Assembly (NCBI GenBank): GCA_963662475.2
Contig: CAXXUE010000002.1
Span: forward strand, 50,486 to 114,485
Source: an uncultured Pseudodesulfovibrio sp.
Lineage (GTDB): Bacteria > Desulfobacterota > Desulfovibrionia > Desulfovibrionales > Desulfovibrionaceae
Direction of reading: 5' to 3'
DNA length: 64,000 bases
Below the pieces are notes generated by a model, which did no database searches, was not told the origin of the DNA, and saw only the letters and a program-made list of their open reading frames with translations. This document shows positions 2,674 to 59,279 of this stretch, piece after piece (position 1 is the first letter of the stretch; every line of letters starts with the position of its first letter). Made by a program: the position numbers and the translations under genes.

Positions 2674-3412
2674 CATCTTGGCTTTGCTCAAAGAGCTCAA
2701 GCTGCATGGCCTGCGCGGAGCTTACGACGAGATGCTTGAGCACGGTCGTCGATCCGGGGCCACTCTGGAACGGTTTCTGTTAGATCTGCTCAAGGCGGAA
2801 CAGGCCGAGCGCCGCGTACGCAGCATCCGATACCGCCTGGGGATCGCCAGATTTCCCGTGAGCAAAGATCTGGACGGTTTCGACTTCCAGGACTCGCACG
2901 TCGGTGAGGCCAGGATCAGGGATCTATACCAGGGCGGCTTCATGGAGAGCTGGATCAATGTGGTCTTTGTAGGCGGCACGGGCACCGGAAAAACGCATTT
3001 AAGCATCGCCATCGGCTCCAATGCCGTGCGCAACGGCGCCCGAGTGCGCTTTTTCAATCTGGTGGACCTCGTCAACCAGCTCAAGCAGGAAAAGGCGGAC
3101 GGCAAGGCCGGACGGCTGGCCGAGACTTTGGCGCGCTTCGACTTGGTCATCCTGGACGAACTCGGCTACCTGCCGTTTTCCAGGTCAGGAGGCCAGCTGC
3201 TCTTTCACCTGCTCTCAAAGCTCTACGAGAGGACCTCGGTGCTGATCACCACGAACCTGAGCTTCGGGGAGTGGTCACAGGTCTTTGGAGACGCCAAGAT
3301 GACCACGGCCCTGTTGGACCGCGTCACACATCACTGCGAGATCATCGAAACAGGCAATGAAAGCTGGAGGCTGAAACAAGGCAGGGGACAGCACCAAGGG
3401 CAGGACGCATAA
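2660..3412 (+). CDS. istB: IS21 helper ATPase IstB
   Basis: Walker A GGTGTGKT, Walker [13 protein letters not shown] and ALLDR motifs; ATG at 2660 with GGAGG, overlapping the istA stop. Confidence 0.95.
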
Positions 3413-3416
3413 GCGT

Positions 3417-3479
3417 CGGCGGCAGGGTCGGGAATTCCGGTCGCCCTCCGGGCTCCCTCCATTCCCGACCCTGCCGCCG
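3417..3479. repeat. 19-bp perfect inverted repeat inside the IS21 right end
   Basis: CGGCGGCAGGGTCGGGAAT (3417-3435) / ATTCCCGACCCTGCCGCCG (3461-3479). Confidence 0.85.
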
Positions 3480-4737: not shown

Positions 4738-5627
4738 GCCTTACCCGCTTTGTCAGCTTCTAAGCCCTGTGCTCGATGGCTGCCGCAGGTCTGCGTAAGG
4801 GCATTCCCTAAAAAACAAGCCGAAACGCGAACAGGTGCACCCGTACTCCAAATTCCGGCGAACGCACTGGCCTTTCGGCACTTACACGCGCCCTCACGAA
4901 CAAGCCATCAAACCCATTACGGCTTGGAGGGTGACAAAGCGGCGGGAGCGGCTCTTTCGAATCACCGGAGGGAGCGCAGCGCACGACCTTGATTCGGGAG
5001 CGAAGCCGCTTTGATCAGCCTCCTGCCGCAATGGGGGGCGGGTAAACGAGGCACCCCAAAGGCGGTTTTTGCTTACTTTTGAGCGCCTTGGTTCAAAAGT
5101 AAGTCGTAGCCGAAGGGTACGAAATCCTTGCATCCGCATGTGTCGCCGCCAAAAGCGGCTTTCCCATCTGCCTTTCAGCCTTACCCGCTTTGTCAGTTTC
5201 TAAGCCCTGTGCTTGATGGCTGCCGCAGGTCTGCGTAAGGCCATTCCCTGAAAGGCTAGCAGCAGCGCGAGTGCTCTGGCCTTGCTCCAAATCTCGGCTA
5301 ACGTACTGGCCTTGCGGCACTGTCCCGCGCCCGCACGGATAAGCCATCAACCCCATTGCGGCTTGGAGGGTGACAAAGCGGCGGGAGCGGCTCTTTCGAA
5401 TCACCGGAGGGAGCGCAGCGCACGACCTTGATTCGGGAACGAAGCCGCTTTGATCAGCCTCCTGCCGCAATGAGGGGCGGGTAAACGAGGCACCCCAAAG
5501 GCGGTTTTTGCTTACTTTTGAGCGCCTTGGTTCAAAAGTAAGTCGTAGCCGAAGGGTACGAAATCCTTGCATCCTCATTTATCGCCGCCAACAGCGGATT
5601 CCCCTTCTGCCTTTCAGCCTTTCCCGC
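4738..5627. repeat. Two tandem ~440-bp structured intergenic repeat units
   Basis: GCCTTACCCGCTTTGTCAG at 4738 and 5178; GGCTTGGAGGGTGACAAAGCGG at 4921 and 5360; each unit has nested inverted repeats. Confidence 0.9.
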
Positions 5628-6555: not shown

Positions 6556-7317
6556 ATGTCTAGGCAAACGCAATCTCCGGGCACGTTTCGATACCTGATC
6601 CTTTCGATCGGAACGTTCTTCGTCCTCCAGGCGATGGTTATCGTCCTGCACGAGTTCACCCATTCCACCACGGCCTGGCTACTCGGAGAAATGAAAAACC
6701 CGTTCGATATCGTCTGGGGAAACCCGGTGATCATGACCTGCTGGGACGAGGGCGTGGACTACACACAAATATTCAAACACGGTGACGACTGGCAAGGGGC
6801 GATCATCGGATTCATGCCGATCATCATGCACTCCGCTGCCGTGACCGTGGCCCTGTACCTCATGGGCGGGCAATGGCTCCCGAAACGGAAATGGCTATTC
6901 AACATCGTCTACTGGCTTACCGTGGTCAATCTCATGGAACTCATCGCCTATGTCTACATGCGCGCCTTTTCCGGGCACGGCGACATCGGCAATTTCGACC
7001 GGGGCATGTCCCTCTCGCCCTGGTGGATATTCCTTTTCGGCTCGGCCGCCCTGACCTGGGCACTGTGGCTTTTCTACCACAACGCCCTGCCCCGGCTACA
7101 AGATCTGTTTGCGAAAGACCACCCGACAACGGCCTGGACGATCCTGGTCATGACGTCCTTCCTCCTCTTTCTCTGGGGAAGCGGCATCCGGGTCATGGCC
7201 CATGTGAGCGGGAGCCAACGATTGTTCGGCCTCATCGGAGTCGTGGGATTCGTCACAACCGTATGGGCGTTCAAGTCGTGGTCGGGAACCGATGCCAAAA
7301 CCACCCCGAAAGATTAA
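6556..7317 (+). CDS. Integral membrane protein with HEXXH motif (M50-peptidase-like)
   Basis: VLHEFTHS following a hydrophobic helix; multiple TM segments; downstream GHGDI. Confidence 0.65.
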   Translation: MSRQTQSPGTFRYLILSIGTFFVLQAMVIVLHEFTHSTTAWLLGEMKNPFDIVWGNPVIMTCWDEGVDYTQIFKHGDDWQGAIIGFMPIIMHSAAVTVALYLMGGQWLPKRKWLFNIVYWLTVVNLMELIAYVYMRAFSGHGDIGNFDRGMSLSPWWIFLFGSAALTWALWLFYHNALPRLQDLFAKDHPTTAWTILVMTSFLLFLWGSGIRVMAHVSGSQRLFGLIGVVGFVTTVWAFKSWSGTDAKTTPKD

Positions 7318-7402
7318 ACCTCAAAACGAGACGATTCCAGCTCTCCGTTCCAGCATGTCGCTTGCGACAAAACAAAAGGAACAGCCTGCACAGCAGACTG
7401 CC

Positions 7403-7558
7403 CCTCAGGTTGCTTACAAACCCCAATTGGGCAGGCTGTTGAGAAAGGTTCGAGGGCAAGGCGCAAAAAAAGATCAGGGCCGACGCGTACTTCCTGTACG
7501 CTAGGATCTGATCTTTTTGCAGCAACGCAGCAATCGGGCCTTTGTCAACAGCCTGAGG
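7403..7558. mobile_element. 156-bp MITE, copy 1
   Basis: Ends CCTCAG/CTGAGG, inner inverted repeat CAGGCTGTTGA/TCAACAGCCTG, internal hairpin; near-identical copy at 56580-56735; flanked by a 25-bp direct repeat (7381-7405, 7560-7584). Confidence 0.85.
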
Positions 7559-7605
7559 GACAGCCTGCACAGCAGACTGCCCCTTCCTTTCAATTCGAAT
7601 CAAGC

Positions 7606-8844
7606 CTACCAGGCATAAAGCGGGAATTCACGGGCAAATTCCTCGACTTCGTCACTGATTTCCTTGAGCACCTTGTCGTCTTTCATGTTGTCCAATGCCG
7701 CAGTAATGGCCTCGGCCACCACGATCATGTCTTCCTCAATCATGCCACGGGTGGTCAGGGCCGGGGTGCCCAAACGCACGCCCGAGGTCTGGAACGGAGA
7801 CTTTGTCTCGAACGGGATGGTGTTCTTGTTGGCCGTGATGCCCGCCTTGTCCATGGCGATCTGGGCGTCCTTGCCGGTGTAGTCCTTGCCGGAAAGGTCC
7901 ATGAGCATCATGTGGTTGTCCGTGCCGCCGGAGACCAGCGTGTGGCCCGCCTCCATGAGCGAAGCGGCCAGCACCTTGGCGTTCTTGACCACCTGCTGCT
8001 GGTATTCCACGAACCCGGGGGACAGCGCCTCGCCGAAGGCCACGGCCTTGGCCGCAATCACATGCATGAGCGGGCCGCCCTGGATGCCGGGGAAGATATT
8101 GGAATTAAGCTCCTGCTCCAGGTCCTCGTTGGACAGGATCATGCCGCCACGGGGGCCGCGAAGGGTCTTGTGGGTCGTGGTGGTGGTGTAGTGGGCGTGC
8201 TCGATGCAGGACGGGTGCTCGCCAGCAGCGATGAGACCCGCAATGTGGGCCATGTCCACCATGAGCTTGGCCCCGACCTCGTCGGCAATGGCACGGAAAC
8301 GAGCGAAATCGATGATACGCGGATAAGCCGAGGCACCGGCAATAATCATGGTGGGCTTGTGCTCCTTGGCGAGCGCCTCCACCTGATCGTAATCAATGGT
8401 CTGGGTATCCTTGGACACACCGTAGTGCACCATCTTGAAAAGCTTGCCCGAGAAGTTGACCGGGGAGCCGTGGGTCAGGTGACCACCGTGGGACAGGTCC
8501 ATGCCGAGCACGGTGTCACCGGGCTGGCAGGCGGCAAAATAAACGGCCATGTTGGCCTGGGAACCGGAGTGCGGCTGGACGTTGACGTAGGATGCTTCAA
8601 AAAGTTCCTTGGCGCGATCGCGGGCCAATTCCTCGGCCATATCCACGAATTCGCAGCCGCCGTACCAACGCTTGCCGGGATACCCTTCGGCATATTTGTG
8701 GGTCATGACCGAGCCCTGGGCCTGACGCACGGCCGAGGAAACGAAATTCTCGCTGGCGATGAGTTCCAGCTTGGAGACCTGACGTTCGGTCTCTTTGATG
8801 ATGGCGTTAGCCACTTCCGGATCTTGGATGAGCAGTTCTTCCAT
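7606..8844 (-). CDS. glyA: Serine hydroxymethyltransferase
   Basis: [26 protein letters not shown] (PLP lysine); ATG at 8844 with AGAGG. Confidence 0.98.
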
Positions 8845-56212: not shown

Positions 56213-56530
56213 ATGGGCTTCATTGCATTGCTTCTTTGCATCATCTGGTTCGTCGGCATGTGGCGGGTGTTCGAAAAGGCGGGGGAACCCGGCTGGGCCG
56301 CACTCATTCCCTTTTACAACCTCTGGGTGATGGTCCGCATGGGCGGCAAGCCCTGGTGGTGGTTTTTCATGTTCCTCATTCCACTGGTCAACCTGGTTTT
56401 CCTGCTCCTGCTCAGTCTTGCGATGGCGAAAAAATTCGACCAACCCGTTATTTTCGGAATTGCCCTGTTCCTGTTCCCGTTCATTTTCTACATGATAATC
56501 GGGTTCAGCGACATGCGGTACCGGCGGTAG
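56213..56530 (+). CDS. DUF5684-like small membrane protein
   Basis: WRVFEKAGEPGWAALIPFYN. Confidence 0.8.
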   Translation: MGFIALLLCIIWFVGMWRVFEKAGEPGWAALIPFYNLWVMVRMGGKPWWWFFMFLIPLVNLVFLLLLSLAMAKKFDQPVIFGIALFLFPFIFYMIIGFSDMRYRR

Positions 56531-56579
56531 GAAGCGGAGTCTCTCTTCAAGGGAAAAAAGGCCGTCCGTTACCGGGTGG

Positions 56580-56735
56580 CCTCAGATTGACAACGAACCC
56601 CAATCTGGCAGGCTGTTGAAAAAGGTTCGAGTGCAAGGCGCAAAAAAAGATCAGGGCCGACGCGTACTTTTTGTACGCTAGGAACTGATCTTTTTGCAGC
56701 AACGCAGCAATCGGGCCGGTGTCAACAGCCTGAGG
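56580..56735. mobile_element. 156-bp MITE, copy 2
   Basis: Same ends and internal hairpin as 7403-7558; flanked by a 22-bp near-direct repeat (56560-56581, 56734-56755; 20/22 identical). Confidence 0.85.
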
Positions 56736-56780
56736 CCATCCGTTACCGGGCGGCCTTCTGTTTTTCTTCAATCGACGAAT

Positions 56781-59279
56781 TTAGTTGGCAACAATATTCA
56801 CCAGCTTGTTCGGGATCACGATCACTTTCCTGATCGTCGTGCCCTCGATGAACTTGACCACGTTCTCAAGTCCCAGGGCGATCTTCTCGACCTCGTCCTT
56901 GGGGGCGTTGTTCGGAGCCTGGAACTTGCTGCGCACCTTGCCGTTGACCTGGACCACCAGGGTCACCTCGTCCTTGACCAGGGCGGATTCGTCAAAGGCG
57001 GGCCAGGACTGGGTAGCCAGGCTCTCGGCATGCCCCATGGCCTGCCACAACTCCTCGCAGACATGCGGAGCAACGGGCGAAAGCAGGGTGATGGCCGTTG
57101 CCATGGCCGAAGACAAGGCTTCGGACTCGCTGCCGAGCTGGTCCTTGAGACCGTACATCTCGTTGACCAATTCCATGATGGCCGCGATGGCCGTGTTGAA
57201 CTGGAACTCGTTCTCGATGTCGCGGGTCACGCGGCGGATGGTGTCGTGCTCCTTGAAGCGCAACAGCTTGGCCGCATCGGACGCCGGGTCGGTAAAGGAC
57301 GCCGGGTGCACCGACGAAATGGTCGGCTCCAATTCCTCCATCAGCCGCCACAGGCGGGAGAGAAAGCGGAATGCGCCCTCAAGGCCCTGATCCGACCACT
57401 CCAGTTCCTTGACCGGCGGCGAGGCGAAAAGAATGAACAACCGAGTGGCGTCTGCGCCGTACTCGTTGATCATGGCATTGGGATCGACCACGTTGCCTTT
57501 GGACTTGGACATCTTGCCGCCGTCCTTGAGCACCATGCCCTGCGTGAGCAGATTGGCAAACGGCTCGTCCGCCCGGATGAAGCCGGTGTCCCGCAGTGCC
57601 TTGGTGAAGAACCGGGAATAGAGCAGATGCAAAATGGCGTGTTCGATGCCGCCGATGTACTGATCCACATTCATCCAGTAATCGGTGGCCTCCATGCTGA
57701 AAGGCTCGCTGTCGTTGCGCGGGTCGCAATAGCGCATGTAGTACCAGGAAGACTCGAAAAAGGTGTCAAAGGTGTCTGTCTCGCGACGGGCGGGCATGTT
57801 GCAGCGCGGGCACTGACAATTGACGAACTCTTCCATCCCCGGCAGGGGCGATTTACCGTCCTTGCGAACCTGGGCATTCTCGGGCAGCAGTACCGGGAGC
57901 TGATCCTCGGGCACAGGCACCACACCACATTTTTCGCAGTAGATGACCGGAATGGGCGCACCCCAGAACCGCTGACGCGAGACATTCCAGTCCCGCAGCC
58001 GGTAGTTGACCGCCATCTTGCCCAGCCCGGACTTGTCCAGATGCTCGACAATGGCCTTCTTGGCGGGTTCGTTCTCCATGCCGTTGAAATCATCGGAATT
58101 GACCAGGATACCGGGTTCCGTATAGGCGGCTTCCATGGTCGCTTCGTCCAGGATCTCGCTCTTGGCATGCAGTTCGGGCGGGTTGATGACCGTCTTGAGC
58201 CGCAGGCCATACTTGCGGGCGAACTCGAAATCGCGCTGGTCGTGGGCGGGCACGGCCATGACCGCGCCGGTGCCGTATCCCATGAGCACGAAGTTCGCCA
58301 CATAGATGGGAATGTCCTCGCCGGTGACCGGGTTGACGCAGTACTTGCCGGTGAAAATGCCCTCTTTTTCCAGGTCGTCGGCCCCGCGCTTGATGCGGTC
58401 CATATTGCGGATATTGGTGATGAACGCCTCGACCTCATCCTTGTTGTCCACGTCCGCAATAAGCCGCTCCACCATGGGATGCTCGGCAGCCACGGACATG
58501 AAGGTCGCCCCGAAAAGGGTGTCGGGCCGAGTCGTGAAAACCGAGATAGTCTCGTCCATATCCTTGACCTGAAAGGTCAGTTCCGCACCGTAGGACTTGC
58601 CTATCCAGTTGCGCTGCATGGTCAGCACGCGCTCGGGCCAGCCGCCCCCGAGGGAGTCGAGTTCGGCCAGCAATTCGTCGGCGTAATCGGTGATGCGCAG
58701 GAACCACTGCTCCATGTCCCGTTGCTCCACCTCGGATTCGCAACGCCAGCACAGCCCCTCTTCCACCTGCTCGTTGGCGAGCACGGTGTTACAGCTCGGA
58801 CACCAGTTCTGCGGGGAATCCTTGCGGTAGGCCAATCCCTTTTCCAGGAACTTGAGGAAAAATTTCTGCTCCCACTTGTAGTATTCGGGACGGCAGGACG
58901 CCAACTCGCGCCGCCAGTCGTAGGAGTAGCCCAATCGCTGGAGCTGCTCGCGCATCTCGCTGATATTCTGGTAGGTCCACTTGGCCGGATGGGTCTCGTT
59001 CTTGATGGCCGCGTTCTCGGCAGGCAGGCCGAAGGCGTCCCAGCCCATGGGATGGAGCACGTTGAACCCCTGCATGGACTTGAACCGCGCCACCACATCA
59101 CCGATGGAGTAGTTGCGCACGTGTCCCATGTGAATCTTGCCCGAAGGATAGGGAAACATTTCGAGCACGTAATATTTGGGCTTGTTGTGGTCGACTTCGA
59201 CCTCGAAGCAACCGGAATCCTTCCAGACCTGCTGCCATTTTTTTTCGATTTTTTCCGGATCGTACTTACCTATGGCCAT
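56781..59279 (-). CDS. leuS: Leucine--tRNA ligase
   Basis: [22 protein letters not shown]. Confidence 0.98.

Follow-up and report, generated by a model that had tools for sequence, protein, structure and literature searches.

A foldback element lying between duplicated terminator-like hairpins in an uncultured Pseudodesulfovibrio sp.

How does a short non-coding element come to sit between two complete copies of a terminator-like hairpin, at two sites whose hairpins are unrelated? The question was raised by a 64,000-nt stretch of DNA from an uncultured Pseudodesulfovibrio sp. (contig CAXXUE010000002.1, positions 50,486 to 114,485; hereafter the window), in which an initial annotation, made from the letters alone, had pointed out a 156-bp element after glyA and again after leuS, each time between convergent genes. 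An unbiased repeat search of the window and the gene calls agreed with this description: a family of 156-nt repeats was recovered at 7403–7558 and 56580–56735 (91% identity when aligned), and a 25-nt core pattern had exactly two matches in the window, with none expected. We consider it probable that this is a non-autonomous MITE (miniature inverted-repeat transposable element) of the DDE type, from the IS5/IS1182 superfamily, which is mobilised in trans into the feet of terminator stem-loops and duplicates the whole stem-loop on insertion.

Duplicated hairpins around the element

Both copies of the element were found to be flanked by direct repeats, AGG[A/G]ACAGCCTGCACAGCAGACTGCCCCT at copy 1 (29 nt, one mismatch) and AGGCC[G/A]TCCGTTACCGGG[T/C]GGCCT at copy 2 (24 nt, two mismatches; positions in Table 1), slightly longer than the 25 and 22 bp originally proposed. 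Since both repeats run from AGG to CCT, the element proper must be CAG...CTG, 150 nt in length (7406–7555 and 56583–56732), and the site before insertion can be reconstructed unambiguously. As had been claimed, each duplicated target is itself a stem-loop, and the two bear no sequence relation to one another: the target of copy 1 forms an imperfect stem of 13 pairs with 2–3 mismatches and a loop of ACA, and that of copy 2 an imperfect stem of ten pairs, wobbles included, with a loop of TTAC.

Within the element, a left extension of 26 nt is followed in both copies by a foldback of 124 nt, the ends of which (CAGGCTGTTGA on the left, TCAACAGCCTG on the right) are perfect 11-nt inverted repeats. 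Both copies thus have the previously noted double left end, with CAGGTTGCTTAC / CAGATTGACAAC outside and CAGGCTGTTGA inside, as well as the long internal hairpin, and the opening of the extension resembles the inner end (CAG.TTG...ACAAA). Open reading frames (ORFs) overlapping the 150 nt were all spurious. Read depth in the source organism corresponded to approximately three extension-bearing copies and 8–20 related cores. The element is accordingly small, non-coding and multicopy, with terminal inverted repeats (TIRs) and a target duplication that is absent from unoccupied sites in relatives, which supports its classification as a MITE. The two extensions have diverged more from each other than the inner parts (7/26 against 7/124 positions, p = 0.003); this reflects either homogenisation of the inner parts with the numerous copies that have no extension, or descent of the two copies from old sub-lineages.

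Unoccupied sites were available for both loci. After glyA, three relatives (L121–L123) possess one G+C-rich hairpin directly before the T-tract and no element, and after leuS two further relatives (L142 and L143) possess one hairpin, GGGCCGCCCCGGTGGGGCGGCCC, followed by TTTTTT, without a trace of either the element or the 26-nt extension. The single hairpin of L142 and L143 is recognisably homologous to AGGCC.CCCG....CGG..GGCCT of the window, although proteins of the empty-site relatives are 91–94% identical to those of the source organism and their hairpin sequences differ from the window's (the best GlyA relatives, also 91–94% identical, belong to the genus Pseudodesulfovibrio). The presence of a single hairpin with its T-tract, and no element, at both sites indicates that the duplication came with the insertion, and contradicts the possibility, raised at the outset, that relatives free of the element already carry two hairpins.

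A strain approximately 94% identical to the source organism, recovered from marine-sediment runs, shared the glyA insertion and offered no clean empty site at leuS. In this strain, 604 nt of unrelated sequence replaces the left hairpin copy and the element at the leuS site (window 56530–56732), and at the glyA site divergence has proceeded independently in the left (3 changes) and right (1 change) hairpin copies.

The distribution of the element was surveyed by scanning one genome per species for two inner ends approximately 100 nt apart. Matching elements occurred at no fewer than 119 genome loci, in many phyla. Whole hairpins, 17–29 nt long and mutually unrelated, were duplicated at ten independent loci in Desulfovibrionaceae and Clostridia, including both window copies and a third copy in the source organism (Table 1). 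Where the loop is asymmetric, the orientation of the two copies can be read, and at eight loci (w1, w2, L025, L065, L095, L138, L140 and L135) these were direct repeats, as target duplication requires. Eight of nine hairpin-duplicating loci lay 3–66 nt downstream of a stop codon. Because the targets at all ten loci are terminator-like and yet unrelated in sequence, targeting appears to be by structure and not by sequence, as the initial annotation had proposed.

The duplication was closely associated with the type of left extension. Hairpin-type extensions, which begin with CAG, end with CTG plus one base and are able to fold, accompanied a hairpin duplication in 10 of 13 cases, compared with none of seven elements with a non-hairpin extension (p = 0.003) and none of ~108 elements without an extension (p = 2e-12). 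In L013, L102, L130, L131, L134 and L136 the non-hairpin extension simply repeats the left 26 nt in tandem, in diverged form; these six and L114, which make up the seven, have 4-bp duplications. Among extension-less elements there was no duplication of 12 nt or more, the one apparent exception sitting inside a tandem repeat. Hairpin duplication is therefore a property of one sub-lineage. The expectation that copies elsewhere would show duplicated hairpins was borne out at the ten loci; most relatives in the source genome, where both forms coexist, are without the extension and show duplications of just 4 bp. Extensions were identical at different loci of one assembly (L138 and L140; L130 and L131), indicating that the extension is part of the mobile unit and moves with the element. 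For the same reason, and because it differs from the inner end, the idea that an extension is made anew at each insertion was rejected.

Several loci were irregular. L137 (9672–9930) has a degenerate hairpin and an extra right-end fragment of ~55 nt upstream of the full element; L129 (829–1010, minus strand) has the left hairpin only, with CTAG on the right; in L084 (2860–3045) the left hairpin copy is truncated and the start of the extension altered, with the motif GGTTCGAT. A location of L084 within the T-arm of a tRNA gene was considered and rejected, as tRNA prediction returned none there. At eight of the ten loci the duplication begins with A-R and ends with Y-T, so that the bases abutting the element read YT|...|AR, as if the normal YTAR target had been cut in two and its halves exchanged; the exceptions are L135 (GG..CC) and L140. 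The same two loci (L135 as GG...CC) led us to reject the idea that targets need an AG start and a CT end so that stacked cruciform arms recreate CTAG; in the standard conformers of a four-way junction, moreover, stacking of one hairpin arm on the other does not occur.

Termination and gene neighbours at the two sites

On each transcribed strand the gene-proximal hairpin copy runs into element sequence, and the distal copy alone is followed by a T-tract. At the glyA site the terminator-like sequence extends from 7406 to 7376 with the tail TTGTTTTGTC, and at the leuS site the T-tracts are TCTGTTTTTCTT (plus strand) and TTTTTTCCC (minus strand). A simple terminator scan called the distal hairpin copies and no others at both sites. 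As only the distal copy keeps a T-tract, termination would be displaced and not kept in place, leaving the element within the 3′ untranslated regions (3′ UTRs) on both sides. Judged from sequence, termination capacity is predicted to be kept but to lie ~180 nt further downstream, with probable transcription of the element from both directions as part of the 3′ UTRs of both convergent genes. The original suggestion that termination is preserved for both neighbours thus holds for the distal copy, which scores as a terminator; the proximal copy has lost its T-tract. On both sides, metatranscriptomic contigs of the ~94%-identical strain led from the flanking gene past the proximal hairpin and on into the element, although this is weak support for read-through, because the same contigs were present in the DNA run, making carry-over possible, and because contigs stop at the repeats.

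Gene calls placed glyA opposite an ORF for a 253-aa hypothetical protein, and leuS opposite an ORF for a DUF5684 protein, as convergent pairs.

Table 1. Features of the two window copies with their gene neighbours, and loci with duplicated hairpins
Feature	Positions	Strand	Remarks
253-aa hypothetical membrane protein ORF	6556..7317	+	No Pfam match; points towards copy 1
A-rich tract (T-tract TTTGTTTTGT on minus strand)	7367..7376	-	With adjoining hairpin copy, sole predicted glyA terminator
Left target stem-loop, copy 1, AGGAACAGCCTGCACAGCAGACTGCCCCT	7377..7405		Repeat search and sequence
Left extension, copy 1 ('outer end'), CAGGTTGCTTACAAACCCCAATTGGG	7406..7431	+	26 nt; begins CAG; weakly hairpin-forming; diverged second copy of left terminus
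Inner foldback, copy 1	7432..7555	+	124 nt; CAGGCTGTTGA at 7432–7442, TCAACAGCCTG at 7545–7555
Right target stem-loop, copy 1, AGGGACAGCCTGCACAGCAGACTGCCCCT	7556..7584		Nearest glyA; no T-tract after it on minus strand
glyA, serine hydroxymethyltransferase	7606..8844	-	PF00464; points towards copy 1
DUF5684 small membrane protein ORF	56213..56530	+	Points towards copy 2
Left target stem-loop, copy 2, AGGCCGTCCGTTACCGGGTGGCCT	56559..56582		A-tract precedes
Left extension, copy 2, CAGATTGACAACGAACCCCAATCTGG	56583..56608	+	26 nt; 7-bp CAGATTG/CAATCTG hairpin
Inner foldback, copy 2	56609..56732	+	124 nt; 7/124 positions differ from copy 1
Right target stem-loop, copy 2, AGGCCATCCGTTACCGGGCGGCCT	56733..56756		Followed by T-tract TCTGTTTTTCTT (56757–56768)
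leuS, leucine-tRNA ligase	56781..59279	-	Points towards copy 2
w1 (window copy 1)			29-nt hairpin duplication
w2 (window copy 2)			24-nt hairpin duplication
Third copy in source organism			Duplication AGCCCGGCTTCGCAGCCGGACT ... AGCCCGACTGCAAAGCCGGGCT
L017 (Pseudodesulfovibrio pelocollis)			18-nt hairpin duplication
L025 (Clostridia)			25-nt hairpin duplication
L065 (Clostridia)			21-nt hairpin duplication
L095 (Clostridia)			17-nt hairpin duplication
L135 (metagenome)			29-nt hairpin duplication
L138 (metagenome)			24-nt hairpin duplication
L140 (metagenome)			25-nt hairpin duplication

Two other repeated regions were observed in the window. At 4738–5617 a unit of ~440 bp occurs twice in tandem (90.5% identity), with no Pfam-matching ORF and no Rfam match, and a 66-nt piece of it (83% identity) recurs after the leuS terminator in L143 (4073–4138); this may be another intergenic repeat family of the genus. 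Between ~26800 and ~47800, diverged coding segments are repeated in 4–6 copies each (families D2–D6, D9 and D14), which suggests a cluster of paralogous signalling-type genes.

Family placement, mechanism and alternative explanations

In most relatives the inverted ends stand flush against a 4-bp YTAR duplication, exact in 55 cases (CTAG, CTAA, TTAG or TTAA) and with one mismatch in ~33 more. The same core as in the window copies occurs with such ordinary duplications in L077, L043 and L114. Autonomous insertion sequences (ISs) with the same ends and a 4-bp duplication were also found: L144 (2436–3727, 1292 bp; CTAA|CAGGGTGCTGAAAAAG...CAGCACCCTG|CTAG) contains an intact transposase of 334–362 aa, L128 (1665–3017) is decayed and L126 truncated. 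Their proteins comprise DUF772 and DDE domains. Against NF033581, the NCBIfam model of the IS5 family, the autonomous elements sharing these ends scored 218–273 bits (cut-off 140), and against NF033551 (IS1182) 174–203 bits (cut-off 270), the good match to the latter lying mostly in the N-terminal ~150 residues. With the first model above its cut-off and the second below, the broad family is IS5-type, close to the IS5/IS1182 border, and the link to IS1182 suggested initially was not confirmed. Target behaviour divides in another way: the fixed 4-bp YTAR duplication of the IS5 group is not seen at the window copies (29 and 24 nt) or across the ten loci (17–29 nt), and the ten unrelated stem-loops correspond to the IS1182-type use of stem-loop targets without sequence specificity, as reported for IS1272 and some members of that family. 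IS1182-family elements are listed in ISfinder with variable, sometimes long direct repeats, to which the variable duplications of 17–29 nt would conform.

The search for an autonomous partner, proposed with the initial annotation, succeeded for the extension-less relatives (L144, L128 and L126) and failed for the extension-bearing lineage. Neither the pairing of inverted ends at 0.6–3.5 kb across all 119 loci nor all-versus-all clustering of ORFs produced a transposase, and when IS5-type seeds were compared by tblastn with the window and every locus, nothing was matched in the window or at any hairpin-duplicating locus. BLAST of window copy 1 and one Clostridia copy against plasmids returned nothing relevant; two pattern scans of viral contigs gave one chance match and zero matches, respectively; a protein search retrieved only close (≥80% identity) IS5-family relatives; and contigs of the source organism contained nothing at ≥80% identity to the L144 IS. 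A different target pattern from YTAR was seen in Candidatus Stahlbacteria, where elements with the same ends (L078 770–886 and 3693–3809; L113 3813–3929) are bordered by ATT on both sides and lie inside short tandem repeats of the AGTCATT type.

The following course of events would account for the duplicated hairpins. The mobile unit would be a foldback of 123–124 nt with IS5-matching ends (CAGGCTGTTGA...TCAACAGCCTG) and a left extension of 26–28 nt, a diverged extra copy of the left terminus, travelling along with it. In an otherwise ordinary cut-or-copy DDE insertion, a transposase supplied in trans would insert this unit at the foot of an intrinsic-terminator stem-loop, the two strand transfers occurring at the two 5′ feet of the palindrome, with a spacing of 17–29 bp in place of the customary 4 bp (YTAR). 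Gap repair would then copy the whole stem-loop and leave one copy on each side, and the convergent genes would terminate after reading through the element. It may be by its structure that the target is recognised, and the simplest such structure would be an extruded cruciform with a four-way junction that brings the feet together. Such a target would explain both why the duplication is as long as the hairpin and why targets share no sequence.

Folding of the element raised further considerations. In alignment A2 (15 members: both window copies, L017, L025, L043, L065, L077, L084, L095, L114, L129, L135, L137, L138 and L140, from Desulfovibrionaceae and Clostridia) the inner element measured 123–124 nt in every member. 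The consensus fold has 42 pairs, 18 of which show changes on both sides, with a covariation score of 0.336 compared with 0.148 in shuffles (0 of 500 reached the observed value) and 0.03–0.10 with slid partners. Pairing was asymmetric between strands (56 G-U-type versus 7 A-C-type cells), and the forward strand folded better than its complement by 4–18 kcal/mol in 15/15 members. The asymmetry was repeated in extension-less subfamilies, including a 45-member cluster with 43 members of one sign and 1 of the opposite; relatedness inflates these counts, but the agreement extends over several separate subfamilies. A role for one of the strands in single-stranded form is suggested, with selection on it as RNA or as single-stranded DNA. 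Searches of Rfam were negative over the window at gathering score and over 7340–7620 even at E ≤ 1.

As the duplicated target is palindromic, its two copies are also inverted repeats of one another and extend the foldback to ~210 nt, and the whole composite folds as one giant hairpin with the left copy pairing with the right. Wherever left and right hairpin copies disagree at no fewer than two positions, which is the case in window copy 2, L017 (3243–3260 against 3411–3428) and the third copy, the changes are mirrored and complementary; examples are a loop of GCGA against one of TCGC and, in copy 2, G6/T19 against A6/C19. As a consequence, the left copy pairs perfectly with the right copy within the ~210-nt foldback. 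These changes look like quasi-palindrome correction or selection for a long stem.

Mirrored changes are also what palindrome extension would leave behind, namely an insertion beside a hairpin with a short or absent duplication, followed by intrastrand template switching across the foldback that adds an inverted copy. The giant hairpin, the complementary differences of window copy 2 at positions 6 and 19, the right copy of L017 (an exact reverse complement of the left) and the third copy, with three mismatches to the reverse complement and five to the direct sequence, all favour this course. However, template switching cannot yield the direct copies seen at the eight loci with asymmetric loops, no residual 4-bp duplication is found outside the hairpins, and later quasi-palindrome correction of a true target duplication explains the mirrored changes equally well; we therefore regard extension of this kind as unlikely. 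Still less credible, indeed close to negligible, is an insertion without any duplication, in which tandem identical hairpins existed beforehand and the element entered at the YT|AR (= YTAR) point where they meet. At 8/10 loci the final dinucleotide of the left copy and the opening one of the right do combine to CTAG or TTAA, but the relatives show one hairpin, not two, at each of the window loci, just 0–2 bases distinguish the left copy from the right even though the glyA hairpin is unconserved between relatives, and a perfect prior tandem would be needed at ten unrelated loci.

The enzyme might instead be a hairpin-specific one outside the DDE class, such as an IS110-type recombinase with a bridge RNA, an IS200/IS605-type single-strand transposase or a terminator-targeting retroelement, with the inverted ends incidental. 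Hairpin targets would suit such an enzyme, and a single-stranded DNA or RNA intermediate would be expected to select for the strand asymmetry described above. Set against this, IS5-family elements that encode DDE transposases have identical ends, ordinary YTAR duplications accompany the same core in L077, L043 and L114, and the asymmetry is found in extension-less subfamilies too; to our knowledge, moreover, IS110, IS200/IS605 and retroelement systems make no long target duplications and are without terminal inverted repeats. We judge this very unlikely. Finally, the element could be mainly a functional structured RNA (a 3′-UTR stabiliser, or a small RNA with its own terminators) and not an active or recent transposon, which would be in keeping with its fixed length across phyla, the two-sided changes and covariation of its stem and the conservation of G-U pairs on one strand. 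No Rfam match was obtained even at E ≤ 1, however, the flanking hairpins are locus-specific target copies outside the element, nine loci showed no preference of orientation relative to T-tracts, and the terminal repeats and duplications are transposon-like, making this account scarcely more than negligible in our estimation. An RNA-level role could coexist with mobility, but leaves the hairpin copies unexplained.

Insertion of a trans-mobilised MITE into stem-loop feet thus remains our preferred explanation, and a number of points weigh against it. An exact conspecific empty site was not found: reads and contigs from the source-organism runs were all of the occupied form, with none skipping the element, and the unoccupied sites come from the more distant relatives described above (91–94% protein identity, different hairpin sequences). 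In L017 and the third copy the right hairpin is nearer to the reverse complement of the left, which a simple duplication does not predict. IS5-group transposases are known for fixed 4-bp duplications and not for a variable stagger of 17–29 bp. Neither the window nor any hairpin-duplicating locus holds a transposase, and no autonomous element with the extension was found, so that we infer the enzyme and the family of this lineage, as well as the redirection of that enzyme by the hairpin-type extension. The extruded cruciform and read-through transcription are likewise steps that we infer. Two transposases with similar ends, one YTAR-specific and the other structure-specific, would explain the data equally well.

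There is also a broader and more speculative version, which we hold to be possible though rather doubtful. In it, an IS5/IS1182 transposase reads DNA shape, and the CAG...CTG left hairpin switches its target from YTAR to the base of an extruded stem-loop, the size of which (17–29 bp) sets the stagger; the palindromic duplication then extends the inverted repeat of the element, its copies being kept complementary, and one strand of the foldback is selected as a single strand, RNA or DNA.

Comparison with known elements

Terminator hairpins are among the few sites in a compact genome that can take an insertion without gene breakage, and an element that recognises hairpins from their shape and restores a whole one on both flanks would be close to harmless for its host. 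The proposed consequences are 3′ UTRs of convergent genes lengthened by ~180 nt of strongly folding, mutually complementary RNA, and palindromes of ~210 bp between genes, with assemblies breaking at terminators. The link between hairpin-type left extensions and hairpin targets provides a concrete variable that can be tested.

Extragenic hairpins and terminators serve as safe landing sites for several other elements, including IS1397, ISKpn1 and IS110-family elements in repetitive extragenic palindromic (REP) sequences and bacterial interspersed mosaic elements (BIMEs), class C group II introns after terminators, and IS200/IS605. These act by other chemistries on specific repeats or single-stranded hairpins, and we know of none among them that duplicates a whole hairpin or has IS5-type ends. 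Another group for comparison is formed by the IS5-family ISs and MITEs with CAGGCTGTTGAAAAA-type ends (L144, L128 and ~110 extension-less elements in many phyla), which have the same TIR and the same foldback architecture and, in Desulfovibrionaceae, share their core with the hairpin-duplicating form (L077 and L043 versus w1, w2 and L017). They differ from it in making a fixed 4-bp duplication at any YTAR, without a left extension and without hairpin duplication.

MITEPye1 of Paracoccus yeei is an intergenic foldback whose inverted ends measure 18 bp and whose partner is given as ISPye18 of the IS1182 family; co-transcription with upstream genes as an RNA stem-loop has been proposed for it (PMC11578231). 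It resembles the present element as a small intergenic foldback, the likeness being one of description and not of end sequence, but has 4-bp direct repeats, and hairpin targets are unreported. The Paracoccus elements found in our survey (L125) were of the extension-less YTAR type.

Hairpin targeting by the IS5/IS1182 superfamily, together with possible duplication of a whole hairpin, is already in the literature. A literature search with the end sequence returned unrelated primer-type matches only, and in the literature examined we found no description of a cross-phylum MITE lineage that consistently duplicates hairpins and is tied to a hairpin-type left extension. The nearest parallel is IS1272/TnSha1 (IS1182 family) of staphylococci, which targets terminator stem-loops without sequence specificity, many of them confirmed terminators just downstream of genes, within inverted-repeat structures of 21–38 bp (PMC5678879; PMC4923244). 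In pathway b of the model for IS1272, to which the course of events proposed above corresponds, duplication of the entire stem-loop follows an attack on its 5′ feet, and in the variant IS1272L a 25-bp left end including the inverted repeat is tandemly duplicated (PMC5678879), a striking parallel to the 26–28-nt left extension described here. The comparison concerns targets and architecture and not end sequences, IS1272 being an autonomous element of 1.9 kb and ours 150 nt of non-coding DNA; unlike the family of IS1272, the transposases with matching ends fall below the cut-off of the IS1182 model. The outcome of insertion differs as well, since IS1272/TnSha1 remove all or part of the stem-loop with no duplication, whereas here the whole stem-loop is duplicated. 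If the proposed mechanism is true, the element would be a natural case in which the structure of the target, and not a fixed geometry of the enzyme, sets the length of the duplication, and a mirror image of the hairpin-deleting IS1272.

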